Below, in pieces: positions 1,961-57,983 of a stretch of 64,000 nucleotides of DNA. The position numbers were made by a program, and so were the translations under genes. Below the pieces are notes generated by a model. That model was not told the origin of the DNA. It did no database searches and saw nothing but the letters and a program-made list of their open reading frames with translations. Each line of letters starts with the position of its first letter. The first letter of the stretch is position 1. This DNA is from Heptranchias perlo. Its lineage: Eukaryota. The stretch lies in the NCBI RefSeq assembly GCF_035084215.1, contig NC_090335.1:24118001-24182000 (forward strand), read 5' to 3'.

Positions 1961-2075
1961 TCACTTGGTATGAGTTCTGAAGGAAGGTCATCGACCTGAA
2001 AGGTTAATTCTGTTTCTCTCTTCACAGATGCCGCCAGCCCTGCTGAGTATTTCCAGCATTTTCTGTTTTTATTTA
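1961..2075 (+). mobile_element. Short PLE family-B pseudo-LTR insertion (hammerhead-only)
   Basis: TSD TGGTATAAGG at 1951-1960 and 2076-2085; homologous to the repeats at 33215-33393 and 42190-42626. Confidence 0.75.
1972..2010 (+). ncRNA. Degenerate minimal hammerhead ribozyme (family B)
   Basis: GAGTT-CTGAAGG-A-AGGTC-ATC-GACCT-GAAA-GGT-T-AATTC. Stems I and II pair, but core A9>G and the stem-III palindrome is broken. Confidence 0.55.
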
Positions 2076-3247
2076 TGGTATAAGGCTATAGTGGGTAGTC
2101 TTAGCTGTTGAGGTGTGCAAACTTCTTCTGCATTTGCTACCAGGTCCATTACATTGTGGAAACAGCTTTGACATGGTCTGACACCACCTCCCATGCATTC
2201 TCTAAGTTTCATCTATGTGGACGGTGCCTTGCAGTACCTAATGGGGCAATCCTCCTTTGCTGCACTTTTTCCAGCAGCATCCTTACAGGTGTATGGGCAA
2301 ATCAAGGAACTGATTGATGCCTCTGCTCCAAGTAGCCTATGATTTATAATGCGATCAAACTTTTATCCACCAATCTTTTTAAAATGCTTTTAAATCATTG
2401 CAGTGGCACCAGGTATTCCAGCTCAAGAACAGTGAGCTCCCAGTGACTGGCATGTTACACACTAGGAACTTGCTGCACATACATAATCAGGCCTGACCCC
2501 ACAAAAGTCGGAGGAGGTTAGTCACGCACTGAAAGGTACAAAGTCCGCTATGCAAAGTTCCCGTTCAATCTGTGAACATTGCAGAAAATCTGTGCTTTTC
2601 TGTGTAAGATGTTCCAACAATAATGTATTCAAGGCATGCTTGTTCTCATGTGTGGAGAAATTTCCATTGAGGCCAGCCCAAGTCACAGACAGTATTGTCT
2701 TTTTCCTTGTAAGCAGTTCATTTATTGAACTGTGGTGAAACTGGACCAGTCCAGGATGCAGGCCAGTTTGGGTTTATTGAGACCTCTGAATTTGATCATT
2801 TTTTTTTTACACACATCTTTCTTCTCCTATTTTCTTTCCACTCTGTTTCTTTCTGTAGTTTTAGTTAGGTTGGTAAAGATAGGTTCAGGCCTGCTCAGAG
2901 TCAGAGGTGGTGAAGATTGTATGAAATCTGAACGGTTTGAAATTGGACCAATTCAGATAAACTCAAAAAGATCTTAACTTTTGTCCATTTTGGATGGCGT
3001 GTCCATCAAATAAAAGTAGCATGGTCCCACGTGGACTTTGATACATTTTTATCACACACAGTGTGCAAAGGCACATTGGCAATACCACAGTGACAAATAT
3101 GCAAATATCCACCGTCTCTCTGTCAACTTCTTTTACTGGCAGCTAGAAGTGATTGTCAAATGCTCCAAGCTACCTTTAGTCCTCAATGACTTTTGTCAAT
3201 GACAATTTTTATGTCCATAATAGACAGGCAAAGCCAGTACTTATCTC

Positions 3248-3529
3248 AGGTATCAACCTTGGCTCAGTGGTAGCACTCTCACCTTTGAGTCTGATGGTTG
3301 TGGGTTCAAGTCCCATAATAGAGACTTGAGCACATAATCTAGGCTGATACCGAGGCAGTGCTGCAGGGTTGGAGGTGCCGTCTTTCAGATGAGACATTAA
3401 ACTGAGGCCCTGTCTGTCCTCTCAGGCGAACGTAAAAGATCCTGTTGCACTATTTGAAGAAAAGCAGGGGAGTTCTCCCTGGTGTCCTGGCCAATATTTA
3501 CCTCTCAACCAACATCACTAAAAAACAGA
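3248..3529 (+). mobile_element. Deu-domain SINE (SacSINE1-like), 5' part
   Basis: tRNA-like head with A box TGGCTCAGTGG and B box GGTTCAAGTCC, followed by Deu core (GGTGCCGTCTTTCAGATGAGACATTAAAC...GGCCAATATTT). Confidence 0.8.
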
Positions 3530-3785
3530 GCAGCAGCTATATGTAAACTAGCTGGAGCAATCTCTTATCTTTATCTTGACTGGATTCAAACTTGTCAACA
3601 AAGAATCTACCTAATCAGCTTCTTTTAATAGGTCAAAGTGCCTGTCTGCAAACTCTCATCTTTCTTGGTTCTGGGTTTAAATATGCTCTACTGACTCTGA
3701 CCCTCTCTAACTTGATATCAGGCATCTCAGGCTACCTCTAAAGCAGACCAAAAAAGTTAGATTTAAATACAAATAACAGAGAAAG

Positions 3786-4165
3786 AATCATAGAATGCTA
3801 CAGTACAGAAGCAGGCCATTTGGCCGATGAAGCATGTAATGGTGTTTCCCACCATATGAGCCTTCTTGTCTAATCCCATTTTCGAGCTCAATCCCCATTA
3901 CTATTATTCCTTTTCAAGCATCTACCTAATTCCCTTTTAAAAGAAATTATGGACTCTGTTTCTATAATGGTTTGCTCCAGCCACATTCTAACCATCCCCT
4001 GTGTAAAGTACAGTTTCCTAACCTGCCCTTTAATTCTTTTTGTTATTATCTTTAAACTTGTGCCCTCTCATTACATTTTGCCGACCAGTGGAAACAATCC
4101 ATCACTATTTACTACATCGTAACCTTTCATAATCTTGAAGACCACTATCAAGTCACCTCTTAACC
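3786..4165 (-). mobile_element. CR1 LINE 3' fragment
   Basis: Reverse complement of the CR1 ORF2 end and 3' UTR seen in other copies in the window. Confidence 0.75.
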
Positions 4166-4184
4166 TTTACAATTTCAATGAAAA

Positions 4185-4465
4185 CCTTAAAATTAGAGCG
4201 AGGCAGTTCAGGGGTGATGTCAGGAAGCACTTCTTCACACAAAGAGTAGTGGAAATCTGGAACTCTCTCCCCCCCAAAAAGCTGTTGAGGCTGGGGGTGA
4301 ATTGAAAATTTCAAAACTGAGATCGATAGATTTTTGTTAGGCAAGGGTATTAAGGGTTACGGAACCAAGGCGGGTAAATGGAGTTAAGATACAGATCAGC
4401 CATGATCTAATTAAATGGTGGAACAGGCTCGAGGGGCTGAATGGCCTACTCCTGTTCCTATGTAC
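4185..4465 (+). mobile_element. CR1 LINE 3' fragment
   Basis: RKHFFTQRVVEIWNSL motif; 3' UTR ...GGCCTACTCCTGTTCCTATG. Confidence 0.85.
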
Positions 4466-6694: not shown

Positions 6695-9352
6695 GGTAGG
6701 GAAGGAAGAAGGGGGCGTGGGGTAGCTGTACTAATTAGGGACAACATAATGGCAATAGAAAAAAGGGACATAAGTAACATTAAAAAGAAACAGATTCTGA
6801 ATGGATTGAGACAAAGGATAAGAAGGGATCGATCATGTTAATAGGGGTATTCTACAGACCACCTAATAGTGGAAGGGAAGTGGAGGATGAAATATGTAGG
6901 CAAATCTATGAAATGAGTAAAGAACAATAATTATGGGAGATTTCAACAACCCCCAAATAAACTGGCAAGAAGACATAGGGAAAGGGGAAAAGGGAATGGA
7001 GTTTTTACAGTGTGTACAGGACTCCTTTGTTACCCAGTATGTGAGAAGCCCAACAAAAGAGGAATCACTGCTGGATCTAGTAATGGGAAATGAACCAGAG
7101 CAGATATAAGAAGTAAGTGTAGGGGAACATCTAGGCAATAGCGATCATAACATAATAAGGTTTAAAATAATGATTGAGAGAGACATAAGTAAGACAAAAA
7201 CCAAAGTAATAGATTGGAAAAAAGCTAATTTTGAGGGGATGGAAGTGGAACTAGGGAAGGTAAACTGGAAAAAAAATTGACAGAAAAAGAGATAGAACAG
7301 CAATAGGAAATATTTAAAACTCAATAGAGTTCAGGAGAAATATATTCCTCTAAAAAGCTAGAACAAACTAGCCAATGATGAAATACCAGGGATGAATAAA
7401 GAGATAAGGGTAAAATTGAAACTAAAGAAAAAAGCATGGACTAAGTACACAGACAATAAAAAGGGAATGACAAAAGGGAATATGAAGAGGTTAGGAAAGA
7501 AGTCAAAAAAACAATTAGGAAAGCCCAAAGGAACTACAAAATTAAATTATCAAGAAATAGTAAAGTATTCACAGACAAATAAATAACAAAAGAAAAATCA
7601 GGATAGGGATAGGGCCATTAAGGGATGCACAAGATAAACAAACAGGTAATGACAGCAAAATGGCAGAAATATTGAATAGTTACTTTGCCTCAGTATTTAC
7701 CAGGGAGACTAACAAGGTGGTAATGACATTAGAAGAAGAGATCAAAAAAAAAACATTTAAGATAGAAAGGGGGGAGATAAAACTTAGAGAGGATAAAATC
7801 CCTGGTCTGGATGGATTGCATCCGCGAATATAGCAGAGGCACTATTACATATATATGAAAAATCATTAGAGAAGGGAATAGTGCCAGAGGACTGACAGAC
7901 AGATAATGTTATTCCCATATTTAAAAAGGGAGATAGAACAAGTCCAGGGAACTATGGACCTAATAGCATAACGTCAGTGGTAGGAAGGATAATGGATTCT
8001 TTACTCAAAGATATAATAGAGAAACATCTAGAAAATGAAAATATAATAAAGAATAATCAACACGGATTTCAGAAGGGAAGGTCATGCTTGACCAACCTTA
8101 TTGAATTCTGTGAAGAAGTAACAGAAAGAGTAGACAAGGGTAATGTAGTAGATGTAATATACTTGGATTTTCAAAAGGCCTTCGATAAGGTGTCACATTG
8201 TAGACTCATGACTAAGGTCAGAGCATGTGGAGTCAGGGGACATGGAGCAGAATGGATAGCAAGTTGGCTACAAAACAGAAAACAGAGAGTGGGGTTAAGG
8301 TCAGCTGCTCATACTGGCAAAAGATGGGAAGTGGTGTTCCACAAGGATCGGTGCTGGGACCACTGTTGATCACAATTTACATTAATGATTTAGATTTGGG
8401 AATCGTAAGTACAATTTTAAAATTTGTGGACAACACCAAATTGGGTGGTGTAATTAATACAAAGAAAGAATGTGCCAAAATGTAAGAGGACGTTAATAAA
8501 CTTGAAGAATGGACGTGTAATTGGCAAATGAATTTCAACATAGGTAAGTGTGAAGTGGTGCGTTTTGGTAGGAAGAATAAGGAAGACACATACTGCTTGA
8601 ATAATAAGAGTCTGAATGGGGTAGAGGAGCAAAGGGATCTCAGGGTACAGATACACAAATCACTAAAAGTAGTGACGCAGGTTAATAAGACCATAAAAAA
8701 GGCAATCAAGCACTGGGGTGCATCTCTAGAGGGATAGAATTGAAAAGCAGAGAAGTTATGTTAAACTTGTGTGGAACATTGGTTAGACCACACTTGGAGT
8801 ACTGTCCACAGTTCTGGTCTCCATACTGTAGAAAGGATATAGAGGCATTGAAGAGGGTGAAAAAAAGATTCATAAGGATGATACCAGAACTGAGAGGATA
8901 TAGCTATCAGGAAAGGCTGAACAGGCTGGGGCTCTTTTGTCTAGAAAAGAGAAGGCTGAGGGATGACCTGATAGAGGCCTTTAAGATAATGAAAGGATTT
9001 GATAGGGTAGACGTAGAAAAAATGTTTCCACTTGTGAGGGAGTCGAAAACTAGAGGTCATAAATATAAAATAGTTGCTAATAAAGCCAATAGGGAATTCA
9101 GGAGAAATTTCTTTACCCAAATTGTGGTAAGAATGTTGAACTCGCTATCACAAGGAGTAGTTGAGGCAAATAGTATAGATAGATTAAAGGGGAAGCTAGA
9201 TAAGCACATGAGGGAGAAAGGAATAGAAGGATATGTTGATAGGGTTAGAAGAAGAGGGGTGGGAGAAGGCTCGTGTGGAGCATAAATGCTGGCATGGGCC
9301 AGTTGGGCCGAATGGCCTGTTTCTGTGCTGTGGACTCGATGTAACTTGATGT
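6695..9352 (+). mobile_element. CR1 LINE, 5'-truncated, disrupted ORF2 (APE endonuclease part + RT)
   Basis: IIMGDFN and LDLVM endonuclease motifs; QHGFQKGRSCLTNL, YLDFQKAFDKV, GVPQGSVLGP, RPHLEYC, RRNFFTQ; multiple frameshifts and stops. Confidence 0.95.
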
Positions 9353-9545
9353 AAAACAGATTATCTGGTCATTATTACATTGCACTTTGTGGGAGCTTGC
9401 TGTGTGCAGATTGGCTGCTGTATGCCCTACATTACAACAGCGACTACACGTTAAAAGTACTTCATTGGCTTTGGGACCTCCTGAGGTCATGAAAGGCACT
9501 ATATAAGTGCGAATCTCTTTTTTCTTTCTTTTTTCTTTCTTTCTT
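9353..9545 (+). mobile_element. Deu-domain SINE 3' half with (TTTC)n tail
   Basis: AAAACAGATTATCTGGTCATT...CTACATTACAACAG...GAAAGGCACTATATAAGTGC. The same tail occurs at ~36120-36235 and ~52040-52150. Confidence 0.75.
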
Positions 9546-11252: not shown

Positions 11253-11725
11253 TCTGCACTTTCATCTATGGAGGGCCCATACCAGGAGCCTCGCAAAATT
11301 TAACTGTACATTTTTCATATTTCTTTATGGCCGCTTGTATCTGGCCTGCATTGTGATTAGTTCAAATGGTTTCTGCATGGCTGGGAGCAGGCAGTGCAGA
11401 TGGAACACATATTATTTGGACCAGGTACTATGTAAATAGTGTAACTTTAGAGCTCCTTTGTTTCTATGATGTTTTTAATTACATTTGAGGACAACATGCA
11501 CGGCCACAGACAAGCTACGGAAGGCGATGCTTTCCTGCCTTACTGTTTGCCAGAGAGAAGAAGATCTTCAGCAAACAAGCTAGGCTGTTTGATGTGGGAA
11601 TTGAAACAGTTAAGGGGTCGAGGACTAATATGTAGTTATGATGTGGAGATGCCGGTGATGGATTGGGGTTGACAATTGTAAACAATTTTACAACACCAAG
11701 TTATAGTCCAGCAATTTTATTTTAA

Positions 11726-11766
11726 ATTCACAAGCTTTCGGAGATTTTCTCCTTCCTCAGGCAAAT
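11726..11766 (-). ncRNA. Minimal type-I hammerhead ribozyme (family A)
   Basis: Exact inverted copy of 13183-13223. Confidence 0.85.
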
Positions 11767-11879
11767 GTTTCAGGATCTCCTTGAAGCCTACGCATTTATA
11801 CATATTGAACAATACATGGTGTTTACAGACTGCCCCTGCAACTGCCCGTTGCCAAGGCAATCACCGTGTTCAGACAAAT

Positions 11880-12936
11880 TCACAACATCAACAAGTTCCA
11901 TCCCACCATCAAGCTCACCATGGACTACTCCTCAGAATCAGTTTCTTTCTTGGACACACGAATCTCCATCAAAGACGGGCACCTCAGCACCTCACTCTAC
12001 CGCAAGCCCACGGACAACCTCACGATGCCTCACTTTTCCAGCTTCCACCCTAACCACGTCAAAGAGGCCATCCCCTATGGACAGGCCCTGCGAATACACA
12101 GGGTCTGCTCAGACGAGGAGGAACGCGATGGACACCTACAGACGCTGAAAGACGCCCTAGTAAGAACGGGATATGACGCTCGACTCATCGATCGACAGTT
12201 CCGACGGGCCACAGCAAAAAATCGCATAGACCTCCTCAGGAGACTAACACGGGACGCAACCAACAGAGTACCCTTTGTCGTCCAGTACTTCCCCGGAGCG
12301 GAGAAACTACGCCATGTTCTCCGCAGCCTTCAACATGTCATCAATGAGGACAAACACCTCGCTATGGCCATCCCCACACCTCCACTACTCGCCTTTAAAC
12401 AGCCACCCAACCTCAAACAGACCATCGTTCGCAGCAAACTACCTAGCTTTCAAGAGAACAGCGTCCACGACGCCACACAACCCTGCCACGGTAACCTCTG
12501 CAAGACATGCCAGATCATCGACACAGATACCACCATCACACGAGATGACACCACCCACCAGGTGCATGGTTCATACTCCTGTGACTCGGCCAACGTTGTC
12601 TACCTCATACGTTGCAGGAAAGGATGCCCCAGAACATGGTACATTGGCGAGACCATGCAGACGCTGCGACAACGGATGAACGGACACCGCGCAACAATCG
12701 CCAAACAGGAGGGTTCCCTCCCAGTCGGGGAACACTTCAGCAGTCATGGACATTCATCCACCGACCTTCGGGTAAGCGTACTCCAAGGCGGCCTTCGAGA
12801 CACACGACAACGCAAAATCGTCGAGCAGAAATTGATAGCCAAGTTCCGCACCCATGAGGACGGCCTCAACCGGGATCTTGGGTTCATGTCACGCTACACG
12901 TTACCCCACCAGCGAACAAATGTTATCTGTTTTTAA
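11880..12936 (+). pseudogene. 5'-truncated PLE ORF: RT C-terminus/thumb, Cys linker, GIY-YIG endonuclease
   Basis: FHPTIKLT..SVSFLDTRI..SLYRKPTD (RT); CHGNLCKTC linker (Cys knuckle typical of the Neptune group); NVVYLIRC..WYIGET..RMNGH..EQKLI..GLNRD (GIY-YIG). Uninterrupted for ~350 codons. Confidence 0.92.
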
Positions 12937-13087
12937 TATAATGGGTCATTTGCTGGCTCTCTCTGCCTTCCGGATGTTTCTGCCTCTCTCTGTGTTTTTT
13001 TTTCTCTGTTTTTTTTCCCTGTTTGTTTTTTTGTTGAATGTGTCTTCGGGGGTTCTGCAGATGACACCTCTCTGTCTGAACACGGTG

Positions 13088-13154
13088 ATTGCCTTGGCAA
13101 CGGGCAGTTGCAGGGGCAGTCTGTAAACACCATGTATTGTTCAATATGTATAAA
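13088..13154 (+). promoter_or_regulatory. Putative PLE pseudo-LTR promoter (X-box-like, MYB-like, TATA)
   Basis: ATTGCCTTGGCAAC at 13088-13101, CAACGG/CAGTTG, TATAAA at 13149-13154; same motifs and spacing at 16058-16124. Confidence 0.5.
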
Positions 13155-13182
13155 TGCGTAGGCTTCAAGGAGATCCTGAAAC

Positions 13183-13223
13183 ATTTGCCTGAGGAAGGAG
13201 AAAATCTCCGAAAGCTTGTGAAT
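13183..13223 (+). ncRNA. Minimal type-I hammerhead ribozyme (family A)
   Basis: ATTTGC-CTGAGGA-A-GGAGA-AAA-TCTCC-GAAA-GCT-T-GTGAAT: CUGANGA/GAAA core, stem II, palindromic AGCU stem III, stem I with G-U pairs. Confidence 0.85.
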
Positions 13224-14455
13224 TTAAAATAAAATTGCTGGACTATAACTTGGTGTTGTAAAATTGTTTATAATATGTAGTTGTTCATCCTCTCCCTATC
13301 CATTGTTTAAAAATCTTTAAAAGCTGTGAGAAGGAGACATAGCTACCCAGTTGGGATGACTGACCCACGGTGAGGTGTGAATCTGTTGTAGAAGGCACTT
13401 CATCCAGGGTGTCCAATGCTGGTGTTGATTGACAGCTCCATGCTCAGAGTCTGCCCGACAGAAAAATAAACACTGGAATATTTTCTCAGTTTTGTTCCCC
13501 TTTCACTATCCTGCCATGGAGACGGCGATAAATGGAGGATTCTGTGGGGGTAATTTTGACTTTGTGCGATAGTGTAAAACGGGCGATACTGATTCAGCCT
13601 GTTAGACATCTTTCTCAATTTTAATTTCCATTGACTTCAACAAGGACACAAGATGTTTAAATTACTGCATAGCCCATTTCATCACACATCAGCAAAAAGT
13701 AAGATCCTCTTCAAAGTACGTTCCTTCAATGTGTTATTCCAGCCCTGATTCAAAAAATAGATTGTCATGTTGGTGATTGTTGTAAAAGAACATTCAACGT
13801 GCTGTATGTAGTATTTATTATTGAACTGACTAGATAACTTTGAATTATCTGATCTTTCAGAGCTCCTTTCAACATGTCAGAAAGAGAAAGAAAAAGAAAA
13901 CAATATTTATTATTTTAAAACAGACTTTCCAGAGTTAATGCACTATCTGCCTGGGAGTCAGTCTCATATATAAGAAACTTTATCCCTGTCATTCACAGTC
14001 AAGGGAACTTAATTATCCTTGAAATTTACAACTGAAATAACAGTGGTAAATACACAGTAGGCTTACAGTTGGCATTACTTATTCACTACACTCCCCTGTG
14101 TATGGTGAGAATGCACTTCAATACTTTTGACAGATAAAGTGACTGTGAGAAATGTTTGAGAAGCAGTGACCCCAGCCATCGGTTTTCATCATTAGTCCCT
14201 CTCATCCATCGCAATATAAATCAAGCTGTGCGGAGATTTATTTTAGCATCTGCCAGCAGATAATCTATGGATTGGCTCTGGTTATTCCAGGGCTCACGGA
14301 GCCGATAGAGCACAGCCATATCGTTTACCTGACGGCTGCAGTTTGTATGTCTTCATGGTTTTTTAATCTGTATGTTAGCTCAATCTTAAGAAACTACTGA
14401 ATAATCTTCACTTCTATATAGCTATCCAGATACTGGATCAAACCCAGAAAATCTA

Positions 14456-14830: not shown

Positions 14831-14950
14831 GGCCTCATCTGACACACTTAAACATCCACTCCCTCCACCACTGATGCACCGTGGCTGTGGTACTACATAG
14901 TTGTAAACAATTTTACAACACCAAGTTATAGTCCAGCAATTTTATTTTAA

Positions 14951-14991
14951 ATTCACAAGCTTTCGGAGGCTACCTCCTTCCTCAGGTGAAC
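14951..14991 (-). ncRNA. Minimal type-I hammerhead ribozyme (family A)
   Basis: Inverted copy of 16159-16199. Confidence 0.85.
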
Positions 14992-16057
14992 GATGTGGAA
15001 ATGAAGTCCTCGAAATGAAGTCGCATTTATAATTCACAGAACAATGCTGGTGATAACAGACAGTTTTTTCAACTGCCCGTTGCCAAGGCAATCAGTGTGC
15101 AGACAGACAGGTGTTACCTGCCAGGTCTCAGAATATACAAATCACCAAAAAAAACAACAAACAAAAAAAAACAGAGATAGAGAGGTAGAAACATAGAAAA
15201 GACAGCAACTGACCCGTTATATTAAAAACAGATAACATTTGTTCGCTGGTGGGGTAACGTGTAGCGTGACATGAACCCAAGATCCCGGTTGAGGCCGTCC
15301 TCATGGGTGCGGAACTTGGCTATCAATTTCTGCTCTACGATTTTGCGTTGTCGTGTGTCTCGAAGGCCGCCTTGGAGTACGCTTACCCGAAGGTCGGTGG
15401 CTGAATGTCCTTGACTGCTGAAGTGTTCCCCGACTGGGAGGGAACCCTCCTGTTTGGCGATTGTTGCGCGGTGTCCGTTCATCCGTTGTCGCAGTGTCTG
15501 CATGGTCTCGCCAATGTACCATGCTCTGGGGCATCCTTTCCTGCAACGTATGAGGTAGACAACGTTGGCCGAGTCACTCGGCCAATGTTGTCTACCTCAT
15601 ACGTTGCAGGAAAGGATGCCCCGGAGCATGGTACATTGGCGAGACCATGCAGACACTGCGACAACGGATGAACGGACACCGCGCAACAATCGCCAAACAG
15701 GAGGGTTCCCTCCCAGTCGGGGAACACTTCAGCAGTCAAGGACATTCAGCCACCGACCTTCGGGTAAGCGTACTCCAAGGCGGCCTTCGAGACACACGAC
15801 AACGCAAAATCGTAGAGCAGAAATTGATAGCCAAGTTCCGCACCCATGAGGACGGCCTCAACCGGGATCTTGGGTTCATGTCACGCTACACGTTACCCCA
15901 CCAGCGAACAAATGTTATCTGTTTTTAATATAACGGGTCAGTTGCTGTCTTTTCTATGTTTCTACCTCTCTATCTCTGTTTTTTTTTGTTTGTTGTTTTT
16001 TTTGGTGATTTGTATATTCTGAGACCTGGCAGGTAACACCTGTCTGTCTGCACACTG

Positions 16058-16152
16058 ATTGCCTTGGCAACGGGCAGTTGAAAAAACTGTCTGTTATCAC
16101 CAGCATTGTTCTGTGAATTATAAATGCGACTTCATTTCGAGGACTTCATTTC
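16058..16152 (+). promoter_or_regulatory. Putative PLE pseudo-LTR promoter with Inr
   Basis: X-box-like 16058-16071; TATAAA 16119-16124; Inr TCATTTC 16146-16152 with A+1 at 16148, 29 nt after the TATA start. Confidence 0.55.
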
Positions 16153-16158
16153 CACATC

Positions 16159-16199
16159 GTTCACCTGAGGAAGGAGGTAGCCTCCGAAAGCTTGTGAAT
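16159..16199 (+). ncRNA. Minimal type-I hammerhead ribozyme (family A)
   Basis: GTTCAC-CTGAGGA-A-GGAGG-TAG-CCTCC-GAAA-GCT-T-GTGAAT. Confidence 0.88.
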
Positions 16200-17024
16200 T
16201 TAAAATAAAATTGCTGGACTATAACTTGGTGTTGTAAAATTGTTTACAATTGTCAACCCCAGTCCATCACCGGCATCTCCACATCAGTACTACATAGTGT
16301 ATACTATCTACAGGATGCACTGCAGCAACTCACCAAGGCTTCTTTGGCAGCACCTCCCAAACCCATGACCTCCACCATCTAGAAGGACAAGGGCAGCAAG
16401 TGCATGGGAACACCATCACTTCCAAGTTCCTCTCCAAGTCACGCAACATCCCACCTTGGACATAAATAACCGTTCCTTCATCATCGCTGGGTCAATATCC
16501 TGGAACTCCTGAACTAACAGCATTGTGGGAGCAGCTTCACCACATGGACTGCAGCTGTTCAAGAAGAAGGCTCACCACCACCTTCTCAAGGGCAACTAGG
16601 ACTGGGCGAGAAATGCTGGCCTCGCCTGCAACGTCCACATCCCAAGAATGAATTTAAAAAAAACACAATTATCAGGAAGTGTTTCTGGTGAGGTCAACAC
16701 TAATGGCTTTGCAATTAAAAAGTATTCACATATCGAGGCCAAATAGTGTCAGTACAGCCATATGTGGCTATCTTGTCTGTAGCCCTGCCTTTTCTCACTA
16801 AACAGTTACTAGCTACACCTACTGAATGTGAATTGTATCTCACACAGGATTTGAATTGTGACAGGACACCAATGCATCACAGTAAGATGGCAATAGGCAG
16901 AATAGAGATTCAAGGGCCATGAATTTTGTGAAAGTACGCGTTAGAACAAGAAGAGGAAATAGACTAATGAGCATGCCCTTGCAGTTGTTCTAGTTTGTGA
17001 ATTTTAAAATGAATGTCAGTTCAT

Positions 17025-17563
17025 AGACTTGAAAAATTGGATCTTTTTTCATTAGAACAACGCAGATTATGAGGCAGTATGATAGAAGTGTTTAAAATTA
17101 GGAATGTAAGGAATCTTACAACACCAGGTTATAGTCCAACAGTTTTATTTGGTGTTGTAAGATTACTTACATTTGTCCACCCCAGTCCATCACCGGCATC
17201 TCCACATTAAAATTAGGAAAGGATGGGACAGGGTAGATAAAAGTAGACTGGTTTCAGTGGTTGAGGGATCAAGAGAAGGGCCCGTAGATACGAGATCAAA
17301 GGTAAGAGATTTAGAACAGAGATTAGGAGAAACATTTATGCAGAGAGTTGTGAGGCTATGGAATTCACTTCCAGGGTTAGTAGTTGAGGTAGAAACTAGG
17401 TCAACATCCGAGATTAGATTAGATAGGCGGATGAAGGAAAAGGGGTTGACGAGATACAGGAATAGGGTGGGTAAACGTGATTGGAACCATTTTATCACTT
17501 GAAGGGTAAACATACACGTGGACTGGTTGGGCCTGTTTCTGTGTTGTAACTTCTATGTATTTC
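17025..17563 (+). mobile_element. Old CR1 3' fragment interrupted by a mini-PLE
   Basis: IEVFKI | RKGWDRVDK..FMQRVVRLWNSLP continues across the insertion. Confidence 0.75.
17105..17206. mobile_element. 102-bp inverted PLE terminus insertion (family-A variant)
   Basis: TSD TTAAAATTAGGAA at 17092-17104 and 17207-17219; inverted TGTAAGGAATCTTACAACACCA / TGGTGTTGTAAGATTACTTACA plus tail CCCCAGTCCATCACCGGCATCTCCACA. Confidence 0.88.
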
Positions 17564-25288: not shown

Positions 25289-25386
25289 TTTCATTTTGTA
25301 TGCATTATTTAATGAGTGAATTGATAAATCTGGATTTGAATTTGCATTTGGTGGTGATTTTTATTTCTGCGGTGAACTGAGGACGA

Positions 25387-39360: not shown

Positions 39361-39657
39361 TCACAAAGGGAATACACCAGGGTGTTTATTATTTTGTACT
39401 TTGTTTCTTATATAATGTCACATTCCAGATATTAAATAGTCTATTCTCACCACTCCTGCCACCTCTCGTCCATTCTTCCGCGGCTTGTGCAATAGTTGCG
39501 TTCCGTGGAGGCCATCATGACGGCGAACACCTGCTGCCACCCATTGGGCACACTGCTGTGGGTGCAGGATTACTGGCAGCACTCTTCAGTGGAGGGGGCT
39601 GGTATGGCCGCTCGCATGTGCAGGTGAGGAGATGCGAGCGCCTCGCAGTGTCTGACT

Positions 39658-42189: not shown

Positions 42190-42626
42190 CTAAAAACAGA
42201 AAATGCTGGAGAAGCTCAGCAAGTGAGGCAGCACCTGTGGAGAAAGAAACAGAGTTAACGTTTCAGGTTGAAGACCTTTCGTCAGAACTGGAAGATGTTA
42301 AAGAGTTAAAATGTTTAAGCAAGTACAGAGGCAGGGAAAGGGAGGGAGGGAGGGGTGGGGAGGAAAGAACAAAAGGGAAGGTCTGTGATAGGGTAGAGGG
42401 CATGAAAGATTAAAGGACAAAAGGGATGATGGTGCAAGTCAAGGAAGGTGGTAATGGGACAGGTTAAGAAATAAAAGATTGATCAGGAGTAGCTGTAAAT
42501 GGCCGCAGTGGAACCATTACCAGCATTAGCTAACCGAAAAAATGGGAGCAATGGTTATGATCTGAAGTTATTGAAATCAATGAAACCCTTATTTCAGATT
42601 TCCAGCATCCGCATTATTTTGCGTGT
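42190..42626 (-). mobile_element. PLE family-B 3' fragment with short inverted tail
   Basis: TSD GAAATTCATGGA at 42178-42189 and 42627-42638; minus arm starts TAAAAACAGAAAATGCTGG; plus arm TTATTTCAGATTTCCAGCATCCGCATTATTTTGC. Confidence 0.82.
42253..42289 (-). ncRNA. Minimal type-I hammerhead ribozyme (family B)
   Basis: AGTT-CTGACGA-A-AGGT-CTTCA-ACCT-GAAA-CGT-T-AACT. Confidence 0.78.
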
Positions 42627-47590: not shown

Positions 47591-47847
47591 TTGTTGTTAT
47601 TGTTCGATTCCAAGCCCTCTTTAAAAGTTAAAGCCAAATATTGTAGCATTCTTCCAAGGAAGCTCAGATGCCAGACCAATTGGAAATTCAGTAAAATGGC
47701 TAACGCAGACGAAATTTGTTGCCCTTTAACCTGGTCAAGGATTTAGACAATGGCCATGGTTGCTTGCAATGTGCGAGAGTCAACTCTAATTCCAATTTAC
47801 TCCATTTTGCAGTTCAGGAACTTTGAGTTCACAATGATTCTATTCAT

Positions 47848-49331
47848 GATACTCTTCCAAAGCTCTCTCGACTCAGGAACTGTTCCTTTAGATTGGAAAA
47901 TTGCACATGTCACTTCGTTATTTAAGAAAGGTGAAAGAGGGAATCCAGGGAATTATAAACCAGTTAGCCTAACATCTGTTGTCGGGAAATTATTAGAGTC
48001 TATAATTAAGGATAGGGTGACTGAACACCTTGAGAATTTTCAGTTGATCAGGGAGAGCCAGCATGGGTTTGTAAAGGGTAGGTTATGCCTGATGAACCTT
48101 ATTGAATTTTTTGAAGAGGTGACTAAAGTAGTGGACAAGGGAATGTCTATGGATGTTGTTTATATGAATTTCTAGAAGGCATTTGATAAAGTCCCTCATA
48201 AGAGACTTTTAGCTAAAGTTGAAGCTTATGGAATTGGGGGCAAATTATTGACCTGGTTAGGAAATTGGCTGAGTGGCAGGAGACAGAGAGTAGAGATAAT
48301 GGGCAGGTACTCAAATTGACAGGATGTGACTAGTGGTGTCCCACAGGGATCTCTATTGGGGCCTCAACTATTCACTGTATTTATTAACGATTTAGATGAC
48401 AGGATAGAGAGCCACATATCCAAGTTTGCTGATGATACAAAGATAGGTAGCATTGTAAGCAGTGTAGATGGAAACATAAAATTACGAAGAGATATTAATA
48501 GATTAAATGAATGGGCAAAACTGTGGCAAATGGATTTCAATGTAGGCAAGTGTGAGGTCATCCACTTTGGACCTAAAAATGATAGGCTAGAGTACTTTCT
48601 AAATGGTGAAAAGCTCGAAACAGTGGAGGTCCAACGAGACTTAGGGGTCCATGTACATAGATCATTAAAATGCCATGGACAGATGCAGAAAATAATCATA
48701 AAGGCTAATGGAATGCTGGCCTTTATATCTAGAGGACTGGAATACAAAGGAGTAGAAGTTATGCTGCAGCTATACAAAACCCTGGTTAGACTACATCTGG
48801 AGTACTGTGTTCAGTTCTGGGCACCGCACCTTAGGAAGGATATATTGACCTTGGAGGGAGTGCAGCGTTGGTTTACTAGAATGATACCTGGACTCCAAGG
48901 GTTAAATTACGAGGAGAGATTACACAAACTAGGGTTGTGTTCCCTGGAATTTAGAAGATTATGGGGTAATTTGATCAAAGTTTTTAAGATATTAAGGGGA
49001 ACTGATAGGGTAGACAGAGAAAAACTATTTCCACTGGTTGGGGAGTCTGGGACTAGGGGACATAGCCTAAAAATTAAAGCCAGGACTTTCAGGAAGTGAA
49101 GTTAGGAAACACTTCTACACACAAAGGGTGGTAGAAGTTTGGAACTCTCTTCCGCAAATAGCAGTTGATGCTAGCTCAATTGTTAATTTTAAATCTGAGA
49201 TTGATAGATTTTTGTTAACCAAAGGTATTAAGGTTATGGTGTGTATATGGAATTAGGTCACAGAGCAGCTATGATCTCATATAATGGTGGAACAGGCTCA
49301 AGGGGCTAAATGGCCTACTCCTGTTCCTATG
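47848..49331 (+). mobile_element. CR1 LINE 3' 1.5 kb (RT), with stops
   Basis: DWKIAHVT..NYKPVSLTS, GVPQGSLLGP, KFADDTK, HLEYCVQFW. Confidence 0.95.
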
Positions 49332-51199
49332 ATACTGTCCTAAAATAAAACATTAATGGGCAGAATATGGGTCTGTGAAATTTCAAGTTACTTGACCAAC
49401 TTATTTTGCTGAATTCCGTTTAATTTTGATGCCCCTCCCTACTCTAGGAAAAGTAATTTAAAATTTTATAATAAGAATGATGACTGTCTCATTTATTATT
49501 TAGCTTTCTAACGAGTAGCCTGATTTAACTGATAAAAGACAATGGATTCCTCTGTCCGTTTAAGTTTCTGTATGCAGTGCACTATTCCTGAGCGTGAGGA
49601 AGGCCCCTGCTAATGTTGTTGTTTAAAGGTGGCTGGTCAAAGATGTATGAGAGTGGTGCCTCTTTACAAGGCCAATGAGGCTAAGAGGGCAGAGCCAGGG
49701 GTGACGACTCCCTTCCCTAGGAGTTCCTTGGCACAAAAAGGACCCAGGGTAAGATTGGAGGGTATTACACAAGGGAGATGAGGCATACCCATCCTCCAGA
49801 AGGCAGCAAGTGGGCCCTACAAGTGGTGCAGGCCACAGATACAGCCTGGATCCCTGAAGGTAAGGTAATAATTTCTTTTTAAAAATCCTAGATTGACCCC
49901 CATACAAATGGCGCGTTGGTGGGGGTTCCCATGAGTTCTTCCGACTCAACCGGACATCGGATTTTCCAGCAGCATGGGGCAGGTAAGTGCCGGAGACGCG
50001 CCCGTGGTGGTGGGGATGCCCATTAGGCCAATGGAAATAAGATGCAAAATGTGGCAGGGACAGCGCGGGAGGGCACAGCGGGTGTGAATGTGGCATAACT
50101 TGGGACCACGGTCTGCGGATTTTCGGGGCCATTGAGTTTGCAAAAGCTTTGCTTAGAATTTTTGGTGAATCAGGAGACTGTGAGCTTGCAAAAGCTTAGT
50201 TAATAAAGTTCGCCATCTGATGGAGGGAAGGACTGATTTCCTTTTTAACATTGGACTGAGTATTTTGTTTAAGAGGAAAATTCAGGCTCTAACAACATAG
50301 TTTTGGTGCATAAAATTTTCCTTCAAGCAATCTACTTCGTAATGCAAATTAATTGTTTTTCTTCGTCTACACAATTAAAGACTTCATAGTTGACAGTTTC
50401 TACATATCAGGTATTGTTGGAGAGCTCGTTAGCAGAATTTTATCATCAAATAATGATGATGTCTGATTGCCAGCTGCTGCTGGTAGAAATACATGGGCAA
50501 CTAGTGTTAATATACAAGATCTTTATTAATTAGGAGACTGGGTAAGCTAAATTGCTAGGGATTAAACATGAAAGGAATTTCTCTGTGGTGAAAGTCACAC
50601 TATACTCTGGGAAAAAGCAAACTATAGAATGCACAGAGCTAGATTCCCATGCATATCACCAAGTTCTGGCTGGCATCTTGACATAATTTAATGACAAAGC
50701 AATAATGGCTGCCATTGGGTTTGCCTTTTCCTCACAGTTCTCTCCCCTCCTTCCTTTGAAGTCACAAAGGCAGGTGTTTCCAGGGTGGGTGCGGACTGGA
50801 GGGCAATGTGCGTGCACAGCCCTTGGGCAGCACTGGAGCGCCTGGATTTCCTGGAGGTGCCCATTTACATCGAGAGGGTGGAGGTGTGTAATTGGAGCAG
50901 GGCCACCCAGTTCGAGCACATGTTGCACCTTAAAAGTCTGAGGCTGATTTAAAGGGGCACAGAGCAAAAGGAGGCAGAACCAAGGCGGTGGAGGCACTAT
51001 TGAGTGACCACGAGATTCTTGCTAAGAACCTAAGTGACTGTTTTGGCAGCTTCTGATAGTTTTATAAAGGGCAAGAAAAAATTGAAACTGGATGATAGGC
51101 ATAAAATCCTTTCAAAGTATTAGTGACTGAAGTCTGGCCTGGAATGTAAGTGCTGTTTGTTGGTTTTAAAATTCGATCCCTTGATACTGCTCTTCTGCT

Positions 51200-51431
51200 T
51201 CTTTGGCAGGATGGGGGTGTCATCAGCAAAGGGCTCCGCAGTTTGACAAGGCAAGCACGGAAGCACAGGTGTGGGCTGCGGAATGGCGGAGGGGAGGTGC
51301 TGTACCCTGCCACGGGCAAAAAAGTCTCAAGACCAGCTGGACGCAATGCATGGCAGCAGATAGCAGAAGAACTGATGCGTGCGTGGATGCAGTGCCAAAA
51401 GAAGTTCACTGACCTTGCCAGAAGAGGCAAG
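51200..51431 (+). mobile_element. Degraded Harbinger Myb exon 1
   Basis: EVLYP..NAWQQIAEE..AWMQCQKKFTDLARRGK|GT. Confidence 0.7.
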
Positions 51432-53449
51432 GTAGGGCTGGCTTTCCCTGTCACCAAGGAGAAGGTGATTGTCGTGTGCGCCTCAATGCATTCTGTCTCT
51501 CACTACCTCTCTTCCTTTGCACGTGTCCTGAAAACCTCTGAATGGAAATAGACTTGGTGCTGTAGAAGAGCAGAGGGATTTGGGGGTACAGGTTCACAAG
51601 ACATTAAAAGCAGGTTGATGAGGCTGTAAAAAAAACGAATTAAATTATAAGTTTTATCACAAGATTTATAATGATGAGCCTATATAAAATTTTAATAAGA
51701 CCTCAATTAGATTGTGTGCAGTATTGGGCTCTACACTATAGGGTGGGTTCTGAGGCTTTAGATTGGGTACAATGCAGATTCATGAGGATGCTGCCTGGTA
51801 TGAGGAAATACAAATATGAAGAAAGATTTGAAAAAATTGGGTCTTTATTGGTCTGGCAATATTTCTCCATTTAGCAGTTAATAGTTCAGCGTGGGCATGC
51901 AAACCTGCATACAGATGCAAATTTCAGTTCACAGAGACACGGCCTGCTTATAGAAACTGACATCCAGACACCAACATAGAGAAAGGTCCTGGGAATAAAA
52001 AGTCCAAACCAGAACAATATCTACAGATATTTTTAGATCTTTCCTACATCACAACAGTGACTACACTTCAAAAATACTTCATTGGCTGCAAACCATTTTG
52101 GGACGACCTGAAGTCATGAAAGACCCAATATAAATGCAAGTCTTTCTTTTCTATGTGATAAAACCACAATCTATTTTAATGAACATACCAAGTCCACACG
52201 TGATTAATATTTAATGTAAATACAAAAATCCTTTCAACTTTCCCTTGTAAAGTGATGGATAGCTGTTGAAAGCCCTATATAAAATATGTCTGTTTAGTAA
52301 TCTGTTTACTTTAGGTGCCCACATTGTTCATCTTGCACTGAACAACTGTGGTTTTAGTGTACCCAGAAATTTCAATTGGAAATTTAAATATTTCTACTAC
52401 CCACCCTCCAAAAAAATCAATAGTATCTAACTGCATAATCTCCAGTCTTACATTTTAATTATGACTTATTAAACATTTTGAACATCCTTCCCTGCTGCCA
52501 GCCCTTTGATCACTGACTCTGTTTCATTTCTATTCCCCTTTCCCTTTTTGTATTAATATCAGATTTCTGGAGAGTCAGAAGCCTGTAAACTTCAAACAAA
52601 AACATATCTGATCAGGCAACTTCTCCAGTTATTGATCTGCCCAAAAAATAGATGTTGCCCAGTTGAATTACTATTATAATATTTTTACTAATTGCCCAAT
52701 ATATCTTTTTAAAAAATTGATGAGGCTAATTTCTCTGGAAAACATCTCAAGGACATTTCATAGTAAATTTGGACAAGTTATTCTAGTCTCATGTATTACA
52801 TTGTGTAGTCAGTGAGGCTACATTTGGAGTACTGTAAGCTAAATATTCAAGCCTGATTTGGGCATGAAATTAGTATAATGTGGGTGGGGGACAAAATTGG
52901 GGAGGCCCCGTTTTTGCCACATTTCTCCCCCTTTCTGGCCAGAATTCCAACGGAGGGGGACTCGGTGCTTCCTCTGCTCATGCCTCCTCTCTTGGGATGT
53001 CACAGTTGGAGGTGGGGTTGGTGGGATGCCATGCTCCTCAAGAAATCCCACCCATTCCACCGAGCATACCTTGCACGAAACAGTTGTGCTTACCTTAAAA
53101 TGGCTGTAAGTCAGACTTATGGCTCTAAGTTATGAAGAGGCCCTCTCAGAACTGAACTTGTTTTCATTGGAAAAAAAGAAAGTGAGAGGACATAATCTGG
53201 TTTTTAAAATGCTGACGGGGCGGAAAATATAGCAGACTATGAGCGAGGCTTCAGATTGTAAGGAACATTTTCCCACAGATTAATGGATTTGTGGAGTAGA
53301 CTACCAGCTAAATAAATTACTATTCTACTTAAATTAATATTTAGTTAGGAATGGTTTTGAGAGTCTTGCCAATGAGTATGAATGAGATTGCCAACTGAAA
53401 ATATGAAAAGGAAGGCTAATTTATCAAGGATGAATAATATTGAATGTAT

Positions 53450-55444: not shown

Positions 55445-55739
55445 CTGAGACTTGGATGAGCCATAACTTCCTCCAGCTCAGTGTCGATAAAACCGAAGCT
55501 GTCCCTTTGGCTTCTTCTGCGTCATAGGTTTGAATTCCATCAGTTCCCCTGGTTTCCATCTGAAGCTAAGCCCACAGATGCAAAGCCTCAGCATCCTGCA
55601 TGGCACTGGGCTCAATTTCCTTCTCCACATCCAATCTGTCACTAAAACCATCCCCAAATATTGTATTAAAATAAGTATTTATAATGCCTGAACAAAAGGA
55701 AAAATGATGCTCGCCTGATAGCTCAGGAATTTTATCCAG

Positions 55740-56000
55740 TGAGTAGCTGAACCATACAATCCAGAAACGCTTGTGTTGAGCTGACAGATCTCAGCCAACA
55801 CAGGAATAGGAGAGCTACAGTTGGCCCTCGGACAAGGCGGGGAGGGGAAATCAACAGAGTTCCTGTTCCCAATCGGTACCCTGCCATTCCTGCTGGAAGT
55901 GCACATGTGTGGATGCCGGGTGAAGATGGGTTGGCTGTGATGCTCCCATGGTTAAATAGCCTGCTGACACTCAACGTCAAAGCTCACAAATGAAGATTAG
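55740..56000 (+). mobile_element. Ancient SINE-like repeat (related pieces at ~42930-43130 and ~54100-54290 on -)
   Basis: Shared core GGAAATCA..GTTCCTG..CCTGCTGGAAGTGC..TGTGGATG..GGCTGTGATGC..AATAGCCTGCTGACACTCA. Confidence 0.55.
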
Positions 56001-57376
56001 TTGAGGTACTAGAAAGCAACTGGTGGGGAGTTAAAATCTACCCCAATGTTTTCAAGATGGAGGGGGCGAGGGACGGGAAAAAATAGCAGAAAAAGGAGAA
56101 AATTAAATTATAAAAAAGCGAAATGTAAGATCATATTCTCAGACTTTGTACATTGTGTCCCGGGCCTTTGATCATTCAAGCTGATAAAAGGAACAGATTT
56201 TTAAAAAAGAGAACAGATTGCCTCCCATTGTAATTCTTTAATTATTCTGTCAAGCAGTCCGTTCCTGCCAATGGTCTCCATTGTGATAAATAGCAGCCGG
56301 AATTCTGCATCTGCACTCAAGCCAAAATTAATCATCTGAAGCCTGGAAATAAATGGTCCTATTCAAATACTGCAAAAAAAGAGAGACTTTCATTTTACAT
56401 AACCAGAGCTTTTTAAATGGTTATGGGAACAGAACTGGTTTGAAGTCTCATTGGTTGTTTGGAGCCAATATACTATCCGCAGTGAGAAAGAATGCTAGTA
56501 GCCACAGTGCCCAAAATAAAAAAATCTGGCATGCAGCTTCCAGCAACTGTCCACAGTCTCTTTCTTGATGATTAATAACAAGCTGCTGCTCAGTATTCTC
56601 TCTGCTGTCAATTAAAAAGGGGAAAGAGAAACTGTGATGGAACGTTATAATCACTGTTCCTCAAAGCTTCTATCCACAGTAATTTTAAATGTAGTATAAC
56701 CATAGCAAAGATTCGGTCAACATCTTCCCAATTTGCCAAAAATCAGTGAGGATTTTTGGACACGAGAGCAAATAGGTTCATTTATTTATTTTCTTTCAGG
56801 TAATTTGATATGTACCTGGTGAAGCAAAGGCACCACATCAACTGGAAGAAATAGTTCAAATCCAGGGGGGCTCGAAGTGGATATTGACGACGGCAGATGT
56901 TGTAACTAATGAAACATGGCCATCAAATACCATATTCAGCAATCAGGTGGCATCACCTTTCAAGGTTTCCACAAGGAATCTAACCAGCATCAGAAGGTTT
57001 TGATGCTTTGATCCATGTAGACGCAGAATGGTCCCTTGCAGCACAAGATAGCAGCTTTGCTCTGGCATTTAGGTCCCAAGAAATCTCTGGCATTGCATGC
57101 TGCTTTAATTACTCCACAGCTCATGTTAATAGTTTCAGGTTCCACACAAAACTTCTTGATAAAGGCGAGAACCTGGTTCTCAATCATCTTGGCACTTCAA
57201 AGAATGTAGACAATGCTCTCTCTGCTGTTTGCTTTGCTATCTCTCCATGTTTATATGAGGCACCATATGATTGACAGTGAAATCACAGCCACACATTTTA
57301 GAGAATGCATATAATGGCCCTGGTTTACTGCCTATAATATAATGAAAGGAGTGAATTCCTAATCTCTTTTGATGTG

Positions 57377-57506
57377 CACACCACCTGAGGAAGGAGGAAG
57401 CCTCCGAAAGCTTGTGGGATTAAAAATAAAATTGTTGGACTATAACTTGGTGTTGTAAAATTGTTTACAATTGTCAACCCCAGTCCATCACCGGCATCTC
57501 CACATA
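57377..57506 (+). mobile_element. 130-bp hammerhead-only PLE family-A insertion (distal tail)
   Basis: TSD TTTTGATGTG at 57367-57376 and 57507-57516. Confidence 0.9.
57381..57417 (+). ncRNA. Minimal hammerhead ribozyme (family A)
   Basis: CCAC-CTGAGGA-A-GGAGG-AAG-CCTCC-GAAA-GCT-T-GTGG. Confidence 0.82.
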
Positions 57507-57885
57507 TTTTGATGTGGTGCAGTCTCAGATTGTGCTTCACGACACATACTGAGGGGATTTATTCTGTGGTGGATTTACGTGGAAATAGCACTGAAACTGT
57601 AAATGTAACTTTGACAAGGACCGGCTCAAATTTCCTTGGTATATCTTTGTTAAATGCTCTTGATGGATTCCAACACTATTAGCACCCTCGAAAGGGGTTC
57701 GGGGTGGGGGGTGGGGGGAGAGATAAAATCTAGTGATGCTGCGACAGCTGAAAGGTCCAAGACAGCCATTTTGTGTCTGTAACAATGTCAATCACTGCAA
57801 TGTCTAATGCTGATGCTTCTTCAGGGCACCGAGCCCACAAATTTAAGGGCTCTTCAGTTACGATGTCACTCTCTGTAATCTAGTG

Positions 57886-57983
57886 TAAACAATTTTACAA
57901 CACCAAGTTATAGTCCAACAATTTTATTTGAAATTCACAAGCTTTCGGAGGCTTCCTCCTTCCTCAGGTGAATGTTGTGGAAA
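57886..57983 (-). mobile_element. 98-bp hammerhead-only PLE family-A insertion (proximal end)
   Basis: TSD TCTGTAATCTAGTG at 57872-57885 and 57984-57997. Confidence 0.9.
57933..57973 (-). ncRNA. Minimal hammerhead ribozyme (family A)
   Basis: ATTCAC-CTGAGGA-A-GGAGG-AAG-CCTCC-GAAA-GCT-T-GTGAAT, with a perfect 6-bp stem I. Confidence 0.88.

Follow-up and report, generated by a model that had tools for sequence, protein, structure and literature searches.

Insertions of two families of Penelope-like elements (PLEs) in Heptranchias perlo end at two 3' sites, spaced about 36-37 nt apart in both families, and head-to-head insertions combine one distal with one proximal end almost without exception. 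Almost all head-to-head insertions accordingly bear a short tail on one side, and the strictness of this already known feature suggests that reverse transcription begins from both strands of the cut on a single RNA, at two fixed positions close to each other. From the insertion products we infer that each strand of a staggered cut probably primes on one RNA at its own fixed register, the ends of the two cDNAs then being joined. The window, a stretch of 64,000 nt of contig NC_090335.1, holds eight such insertions (Table 1); all those listed in the initial annotation were found, with coordinates exact or off by a few bases, and their ends are as it had described, with five inverted insertions that pair a distal with a proximal end and three single-ended ones, of which two are proximal and the other distal. 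Seven of the eight have exact TSDs of 10-14 bp, as had also been claimed, and the end pattern is far beyond chance.

Table 1. Insertions and associated features in the window
Feature	Position	Strand	Structure	TSD
A1, family-A inverted insertion	11638..13270	.	distal-ended arm 11638-11876 (-); 7-nt junction; proximal-ended arm 11884-13270 (+)	11626-11637/13271-13282, 12 bp, exact
Tail of A1	11638..11676	-	about 37 nt, proximal site to distal site at ORF ATG	
Family-A 5'-truncated coding region	11884..12936	+	RT thumb, Cys linker, GIY-YIG endonuclease	
TATA-like box in A1	13149..13155	+	about 30 nt above short-arm run-off	
Minimal type-I hammerhead motif in pLTR, A1	13182..13223	+		
A2, family-A inverted insertion	14902..16286	.	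near-perfect palindrome; proximal-ended arm 14902-15577 (-); distal-ended arm 15573-16286 (+)	14890-14901/16287-16298, 12 bp, exact
Apical 6-bp hairpin in A2	16233..16248	+	3' base is the modal proximal junction (-38/-37)	
Tail of A2	16249..16286	+		
A3, short inverted insertion, older family-A subfamily	17105..17206	.	proximal arm 17105-17150 (-); distal arm 17149-17206 (+)	17092-17104/17207-17219, 13 bp, exact
A4, family-A single-ended, distal end	57377..57506	+	5' end just above hammerhead	57367-57376/57507-57516, 10 bp, exact
A5, family-A single-ended, proximal end	57886..57983	-		57872-57885/57984-57997, 14 bp, exact
B1, family-B single-ended, proximal end	1961..2075	+	hammerhead core 1977-2005	1951-1960/2076-2085, 10 bp, exact
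B2, family-B inverted insertion	33210..33393	.	distal arm to about 33350 (-); proximal arm 33352-33393 (+)	no exact TSD; flanks give decayed 9/10 match only
B3, family-B inverted insertion	42190..42626	.	proximal arm 42190-42590 (-), extends to end of GIY-YIG ORF; distal arm about 42589-42626 (+), almost nothing but tail	42178-42189/42627-42638, 12 bp, exact

Both families are canonical endonuclease-bearing PLEs. The full-length family-A ORF is intact and encodes 902 aa (L056:1141-3846), and such intact ORFs occur in copies that are 99-100% identical. It matches RVT_1 in Pfam (E=2.5e-10) and has the GxKF/Y-like and DKG motifs and the catalytic DD of a PLE-type RT, with G170-x-x-F173, D296-K297-G298 and D534-D535 invariant across 59 sequences. 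The C-terminal GIY-YIG region likewise has the CCHH motif and the R, E and N catalytic residues: Y792, C796, C800, Y805, G807, H820, H836 and H842 are invariant, and R816, E866 and N881 almost so. Pfam placed no family on the truncated ORF of the window and gave no GIY-YIG score on the full ORF; it assigns GIY-YIG to many homologues. The Neptune-type Cys linker previously ascribed to family A is present, as C-x4-C-x2-C in the window's coding region and as the invariant C753-x4-C758-x2-C761 in the full protein, and this linker type is also that of Nematis; a CX2-5CxxC linker between RT and EN is described for Neptune and Nematis and as absent from Penelope and Poseidon (PMC8557442). No clade-labelled reference protein was among the 120 homologues listed. 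Family A further shows tandem pLTR organisation (3,081-bp period in L083), 5' truncation, inverted copies, a 30-40 bp tail and TSDs. In family B the Cys motif of the linker is present in decayed form, decayed GIY-YIG and linker coding sequence leads into the B end (L016 and window 42190-42590), and RT fragments in B loci are 28-49% identical to family A; no intact family-B ORF was recovered. Sequence matching found no solved structure (best E=0.65), and a complex prediction for two copies of residues 1-200, in which the alignment was unused, scored 0.00, a value that speaks neither for nor against a dimer.

The bimodality of family-A ends held when the ends were collected genome-wide, and a continuous spread was not seen. 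Among 163 unique core-anchored ends, 160 fell in two clusters, 88 stopping at -47 to -30 and 72 at -4 to +10 relative to the ORF ATG, while one lay between the clusters and two continued into the ORF. The distal site lies at the ORF ATG and the proximal site about 37 nt upstream; one end of L085 is situated between the two. For family B, the spacing of 26-30 nt given in the initial annotation was too short, and the median over 21 TSD-bounded pairs is 36 nt.

The pairing rule was upheld genome-wide in both families, with distal/distal and proximal/proximal insertions rare or absent. All 58 TSD-bounded head-to-head insertions of family A were distal/proximal, a count from which 8 of 66 rows had been left out beforehand (four from loci picked for being distal/distal, two mis-pairings within the L075 satellite, one of them scored distal/distal, and two distal/proximal rows with a TSD <10 bp); for 49 ends no TSD was called. 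In family B, 34 of 35 head-to-head pairs were distal/proximal with a tail-score classifier, which replaced an earlier one that over-extended into AT-rich flanks and had returned 23 distal/proximal, 5 'mid' and 3 distal/distal pairs, with 4 missed. Genome-wide, where copy numbers are pattern counts, about 14,000 short pairs were counted and orientation was balanced (distal-left 6,386 versus distal-right 6,307). Distal/distal pairs numbered 61 in family A against ~3,016 expected, a ~49-fold depletion, and 13 against ~308 in family B (~24-fold). Only 2 of the 10 family-A 'distal/distal' loci inspected had two outer distal ends. True distal/distal insertions do occur, namely L091 (with TSD) and L093 (without) in family A and L171-L177, most without TSD, in family B.

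End bimodality and pairing support the earlier proposal that both strands prime reverse transcription at two defined internal RNA sites, and added support comes from the target, the junctions, the proximal-only insertions and the arm lengths. The TSD mode in family A is 12 bp (34/58 insertions), and the target is dyad-symmetric, its profile correlating with its own reverse complement at r = 0.71 over 33 sites, a value that none of 5,000 shuffles matched. Microhomology was found at both junction types (distal, 1.13 vs 0.43 nt, n=31; proximal, 1.65 vs 0.60 nt, n=34), at levels reached by 0 of 5,000 permutations in either case, and no poly(A) was found at insertion ends. We propose that one RNA is bound at the pLTR/ORF junction by the RT-GIY-YIG protein, which probably acts as a pair and would nick both strands of the pseudo-palindromic target so as to leave 3' overhangs, the nicks being 12 bp apart in family A. 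Of the two 3' ends, one would prime at the distal site and the other at the proximal site, at the base of the apical hairpin, each aided by 1-3 nt of pairing, and both cDNAs would copy the same RNA toward its 5' end. Because they would share one RNA, one cDNA must displace or follow the other, and overlapping arms would require strand displacement or re-reading of the RNA. End-to-end joining, often via microhomology, would then give a head-to-head insertion with a one-sided tail, and a single productive primer would give a single distal- or proximal-ended copy.

Comparison of the two arms bears on whether one RNA is copied. In 19 of 19 pairs both arms carried the same sequence variant, against 14% expected, although at least 7 variants recur. 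Arm length classes, tallied by hand for 31 pairs, were long/long in 8, short/short in 23 and mixed in none (Fisher p = 1.3e-7). Two RNAs from the same source locus, held by an asymmetric complex whose protomers are fixed on the distal and the proximal register, would make strand displacement unnecessary and still account for the pairing rule and the overlap of the arms, and dimeric action has been proposed for PLE hammerheads (PMC4209133). Non-identical arms were seen in 12 of 33 pairs with both arms of at least 75 nt, a few pairs differ at diagnostic-looking sites, and the differences in L065, L118, L119 and L126 could reflect two RNAs instead of later mutation; the two arms of L092, a complex insertion, resemble different subfamilies. 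However, two RNAs fit poorly with 19 same-variant pairs and with the lack of mixed pairs, since RNAs of both classes would be expected from a single tandem source, and they require an extra source of asymmetry, which one RNA with two sites supplies itself. We consider two RNAs unlikely. Later gene conversion could have inflated arm identity in short palindromes.

Among 55 pairs the proximal arm was longer in 23, the distal arm in 17, and 15 were equal, the proximal excess sometimes exceeding 500 nt (A1, -1426 vs -237; L089; L047). These lengths bear on a fold-back route, in which the distal-primed cDNA copies itself and the endonuclease stops or cuts the copy at the proximal site; related ideas of self-priming and 'EN-mediated resolution' have been advanced (PMC3846280, PMC8557442). 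Such a route predicts identical arms, a one-sided tail and palindromic centres, in line with the 32 pairs whose distal arm is longer or equal and with the near-perfect palindrome of A2, and it may be the source of a minority of events. But an arm copied from the distal cDNA cannot outgrow it, so the proximal-longer class contradicts fold-back as a general route. The TSD-bearing proximal-only insertions, which are common, also speak against it, as does the extension in vitro of both strands from RNA at both sites (PMC11167929), and we regard fold-back as improbable.

The junctions lie at widely differing positions that recur in mirror-image form (-126/-131 and -131/-126), every insertion is flanked by a TSD of its own, and the rule is common to several subfamilies and to two unrelated families. 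All this makes it very hard to believe that the inverted structure was inherited from inverted sources or arose once the element was in place, through recombination, deletion or gene conversion, with the tail rule as a by-product, even though hairpin-forming repeats can be homogenised later and a few junction types do recur.

Most products are short, probably because the junction lies ~130-138 nt from the proposed start of a pLTR-promoted transcript. The 5' run-off modes, -131 and -138/-137, belong to subfamilies in which the TATA box is offset by 6-7 nt and the hammerhead position is constant; only 7/24 and 14/52 short arms end exactly at TATA+29/30. Judging from sequence, the run-off position may be the transcription start and the TATA-like box a putative promoter. 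The hammerhead motif comprises CUGANGA, stem II, GAAA and a palindromic stem III; stems I and II are predicted, and across 19 copies 3 of their pairs show compensatory changes. An Rfam search returned no hammerhead, its matches being of hairpin type and ascribed to chance, and single pLTR ends had unremarkable folding z-scores (-0.25 to -1.8). Hammerhead cleavage was rejected as the main 5' boundary, as ~11 of 108 arms end at -100 to -80 versus 49 at -140 to -121. The motif shares its minimal core, palindromic helix III and pLTR location with the metazoan PLE hammerheads of Cervera and de la Pena 2014 (PMC4209133), where motif pairs on opposite strands, 100-700 bp apart, are described; most short arms here run through the hammerhead as far as about TATA+30 and do not stop at its cleavage site.

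The one-sided tail as a structural hallmark was previously known, and the present counts make an 'optional' feature a strict rule with sharp predictions: equal start sites excluded per molecule, copying of only one RNA, cleavage of a dyad target with a 12-nt stagger, and arms that run off where the RNA has a defined 5' end. The intact 902-aa ORFs in nearly identical copies are a ready substrate, and cDNA written from both ends of a cut is relevant to RNA-templated DNA insertion. That programmed two-register priming is the integration mode of EN+ PLEs as a whole class, with a protein pair on one RNA cutting a dyad target at a fixed stagger and giving each DNA strand a different, mutually exclusive start site, is, on balance, only slightly favoured; if true, this one rule would account throughout the class for the tail, for the inversion of pLTRs and for the abundance of ~130-nt solo copies.

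In L1 twin priming, both strands of the cut target prime one RNA to leave an inversion between TSDs, the first primer using the poly(A) tail and the second a variable internal site, with non-overlapping arms. The priming by both strands proposed here is the only resemblance: in the present families neither site varies, both being internal and ~37 nt from each other, and the arms form overlapping inverted repeats; twin priming of the L1 type was rejected, given ends without poly(A), fixed sites and overlapping arms. Canonical EN+ PLEs show an inverted pLTR with a one-sided tail, as here (Arkhipova et al. 2013, PMC3846280; Craig et al. 2021, PMC8557442), and the origin of this arrangement is named as an open mechanistic question in PMC8557442. 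The tail is treated in these two papers as qualitative and optional, arising via self-priming or EN resolution, whereas here it is near-obligate, counted, and accompanied by evidence against fold-back as a general route. Most ingredients of the mechanism are in print (PMC11167929, PMC8557442, PMC3846280), among them inverted pLTRs tailed on one side, a pair of internal start sites, extension of both strands and the prediction of a dimer. In the main texts of the open literature we found no prior report of near-obligate pairing, of one-RNA evidence or of the argument against fold-back, and no paper dealing with a pairing rule, with twin priming in PLEs or with the structure of a PLE.

The closest system is PAc, a Poseidon element of Anolis carolinensis (Frangieh et al. 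2024, PMC11167929), in which both strands were cut and extended in vitro and a dimer was predicted. The main text of that study, which used a full-length PLE protein, reports neither pairing per molecule nor TSD lengths nor inverted products, and it presents the later steps as unvalidated. PAc and the families here share a pair of neighbouring internal RT start sites that delimit the tail, AT-rich targets and a pLTR hammerhead, and the genomic ends here are consistent with internal initiation of the PAc type. The differences are that PAc initiates ~111-118 nt into the ORF rather than at the ATG and ~37 nt before it, that PAc is described as initiating with no homology whereas 1-3 nt of microhomology occur here (PMC11167929), and that the Cys linker of the families here is absent from Penelope/Poseidon.

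All eight Penelope-like element (PLE) insertions claimed by the initial annotation were found in the window (of a 3.25-Gb genome) with the end classes it had read, and seven of them have exact TSDs (10, 12, 12, 13, 12, 10 and 14 bp); the insertion at 33215-33393 has no exact TSD, matching at only 9 of 10 positions. Its spacing of 26-30 nt between the two family-B end sites had to be corrected to a median of 36 nt, measured in the 21 of 35 pairs that are TSD-bounded. The distal site of family A coincides with the ORF ATG, from which positions are counted; the proximal one lies at the base, on the 3' side, of a 6-bp apical hairpin, of which one pair shows compensatory change in 2 of 19 copies. 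The two-site distribution expected from the window was recovered among 163 unique, core-anchored ends in loci fetched from the same genome: 88 lie at -47..-30, 72 at -4..+10, two run through, and a single end falls between the sites, in a copy with a deletion in the tail (the segment between them). Single-ended insertions with TSDs comprise both proximal-only and distal-only classes. The genome contains 65,207 copies of a 27-mer lying upstream of both sites, 31,073 of one spanning the proximal site, and at least 700 of one spanning the distal site into the ORF, the last a lower bound because that 27-mer is subfamily-specific.

The pairing of one distal with one proximal end, also proposed from the window, is real and far stricter than the "optional" of the literature. 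Genome-wide counts used exact gapped patterns for short head-to-head pairs, whose inverted arms lie less than about 250 bp apart. Family A has 13,355 such pairs with both cores, 6,386 distal-left and 6,307 distal-right, and its distal/distal pairs number 61 against about 3,016 expected under independence. Pairs without either tail marker amount to about 5% by subtraction, a rough figure because the count patterns are not nested, and one that includes mutated tails. Of ten inspected "distal/distal" loci, just two (L091, L093) are bounded by distal ends on both outer sides, the others being internal tandem junctions. All 58 TSD-bounded inverted family-A insertions are distal/proximal, after removal of 8 of 66 rows (four from loci selected as distal/distal, two satellite mis-pairings and two with TSDs below 10 bp); 49 family-A ends have no TSD call. 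Family B gave 1,041 short pairs, 532 and 602 with one tail marker, and 13 distal/distal pairs against about 308 expected; 34 of the 35 fetched follow the distal/proximal pattern, the exception having a decayed tail that scores slightly below the cut-off. Longer insertions conform as well, among the fetched loci. Four loci (L092, L094, L096, L099) have outer proximal and distal ends, a 12-bp TSD and one additional internal arm, as though a cDNA had returned to the junction and begun again there.

Under the standard TPRT geometry, a TSD around a pair of outward-pointing 3' ends implies that the target was nicked twice, leaving 3' overhangs that could each serve as a primer. TSD lengths in the 58 family-A insertions (12 bp in 34, 13 in 14, longer in 8, shorter in 2) fit a constant stagger of 12 nt with occasional extension by chance. 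The reconstructed target is dyad-symmetric, approximately C..TGWY/NNNNTWWANNNN/RWCA..G, and its profile correlates with its own reverse complement at r = 0.71, a value reached by none of 5,000 shuffles (33 sites). Microhomology is 1.13 nt at distal junctions (0.43 permuted, n=31) and 1.65 nt at proximal junctions (0.60 permuted, n=34), while arm-arm junctions typically show 1-7 nt overlaps or short inserts. The same target sequence in separate host-repeat copies was hit by distinct insertions (L037 and L068; L046, L065, L119, L120, L131 and L144), in line with a sequence preference. The extra 5' bases of the first family-B insertion (1961-1972) duplicate part of the neighbouring target sequence.

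The two arms of an insertion are alike: 21 of 33 pairs show no difference over 75 nt, whereas arms from separate insertions agree that fully in 7% of comparisons, and recurrent variants, unmutated in both arms, agree in 19 of 19 cases against 14% expected. Arm lengths are long/long in 8 pairs, short/short in 23 and mixed in none (p = 1.3e-7; hand tally of loci not chosen for short pairs). Later conversion could raise arm matching, but long-spacer insertions such as that at 11638-13270 match too; that the inverted structure as a whole was inherited or changed after insertion is scarcely plausible. Differences at diagnostic-looking sites in a few pairs (L065, L118, L119, L126), and the complex insertion L092, whose arms resemble different subfamilies, count against a strict one-RNA rule. 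Two RNAs held within an asymmetric complex are an unlikely source of the arms. We consider it probable that a protein pair on a single RNA would nick the dyad target 12 bp apart, that the two target strands would prime at different registers, one distal and one proximal, and that both cDNAs would extend 5'-ward and then unite by their ends. Equal pairs would be excluded because one RNA offers two registers, whereas a symmetric two-RNA complex would not explain the exclusion; a dimer is assumed because of the dyad target and the prediction made for PAc, a Poseidon-type PLE of Anolis carolinensis studied in vitro.

Fold-back of one cDNA with EN resolution would also give inverted arms from one RNA, but is quite improbable. 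A copy of the distal cDNA is never longer than its template, yet in 23 of 55 insertions it is the proximal arm that extends further 5' (distal arm in 17, equal in 15; 3 of the 58 were not measurable), and the tail cannot be gained by copying a proximal cDNA; fold-back therefore fails as a general route. The arms of the insertion at 14902-16286 halt at one common position (15560-15590), about 700 nt in, and together form a near-perfect 1.35-kb palindrome. Distal arms with little beyond the tail (42589-42626, L079:807-862, L018) are what one would expect were the distal cDNA to end at the start point of the proximal one.

The 5' ends of 108 arms include 49 at -140..-121 and 33 past -200. The mode differs between two subfamilies: it is -131 (7/24) when the TATA-like box lies at -161, and -138/-137 (12/52), with 14/52 ending at TATA+29/30, when the box lies at -167; the hammerhead core is fixed at -121 in both. 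Judged from these positions, short arms may be run-off products ending where a pLTR-promoted transcript begins. A minor cluster at -100..-80 (L059, L123, L135, L043, L044, L053) falls on or close to the palindromic helix III of the hammerhead and its predicted cleavage site. Hammerhead core motifs occur in the pLTRs of both families, with compensatory changes among family-A copies; an Rfam search of the pLTRs detected no hammerheads.

The family-A ORF (902 aa) is intact in tandem copies of 3,081-bp period and 99-100% identity. Its protein has an RVT_1 domain (Pfam) and, across 59 aligned sequences, invariant DKG and catalytic DD residues, a GIY-YIG domain with CCHH residues, and the Cys linker noted earlier, C753-x4-C758-x2-C761, also invariant. 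A CX2-5CxxC-type RT-EN linker is described, in the part of PMC8557442 available to us, as a mark of Neptune and Nematis; by its sequence, the family-A linker would fit either alike. The nearest named homologues are from sharks (Heptranchias perlo, 93-95% identity; Scyliorhinus torazame, 80-84%), pointing to a shark-like host. Recent activity is evident from tandem insertions (L204:541-9873, L083, L198) that span 6-9 kb and whose intact ORFs are 99-100% identical; one of these insertions landed inside an older-subfamily copy. The tail/ORF junction recurs in nine copies of 404-bp period at G000:C2:21273036-21276294, an array that is possibly retrozyme-like. Upstream of family-B ends lies decayed GIY-YIG and linker coding sequence (L016; window 42190-42590), and RT fragments lying in family-B loci share 28-49% identity with family A.

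Among other elements of the window, the ORF facing the transposase ORF is presumably Myb/SANT-like, and the two have a layout like that of a PIF/Harbinger transposon; the LINE fragments we take to be CR1/L2-like.

Other elements in the window
Feature	Position	Strand	Remark
DDE_Tnp_4 transposase ORF	39661-41163	-	Pfam; within 37458-41166
Decayed relatives	near 22239-23380, 27186-27616, 43925-45931, 51150-51551		
LINE fragment, RVT_1 domain	25556-27124	-	Pfam
Related LINE copies	7896-9285, 47747-49099		

Both families are newly described members of a class that is already known, as is its structural hallmark. We found no statement of the pairing rule in the searchable literature, key subscription papers lying beyond the search, and the accessible portions of PMC8969392, PMC9977147 and bioRxiv 10.64898/2026.07.22.740005 hold nothing on pairing. 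Hammerhead pairs on opposite strands have been noted in PLEs (PMC4209133, in the sections available). For PAc, the portion of PMC11167929 at hand reports two internal RT start sites that delimit the tail and predicts a dimer; both strands were extended there, without a bulk difference between them; inverted products, TSDs and per-molecule pairing are absent from that text. To what is known, the present families add near-obligate pairing, evidence for one RNA, a fixed dyad target and a case against fold-back.
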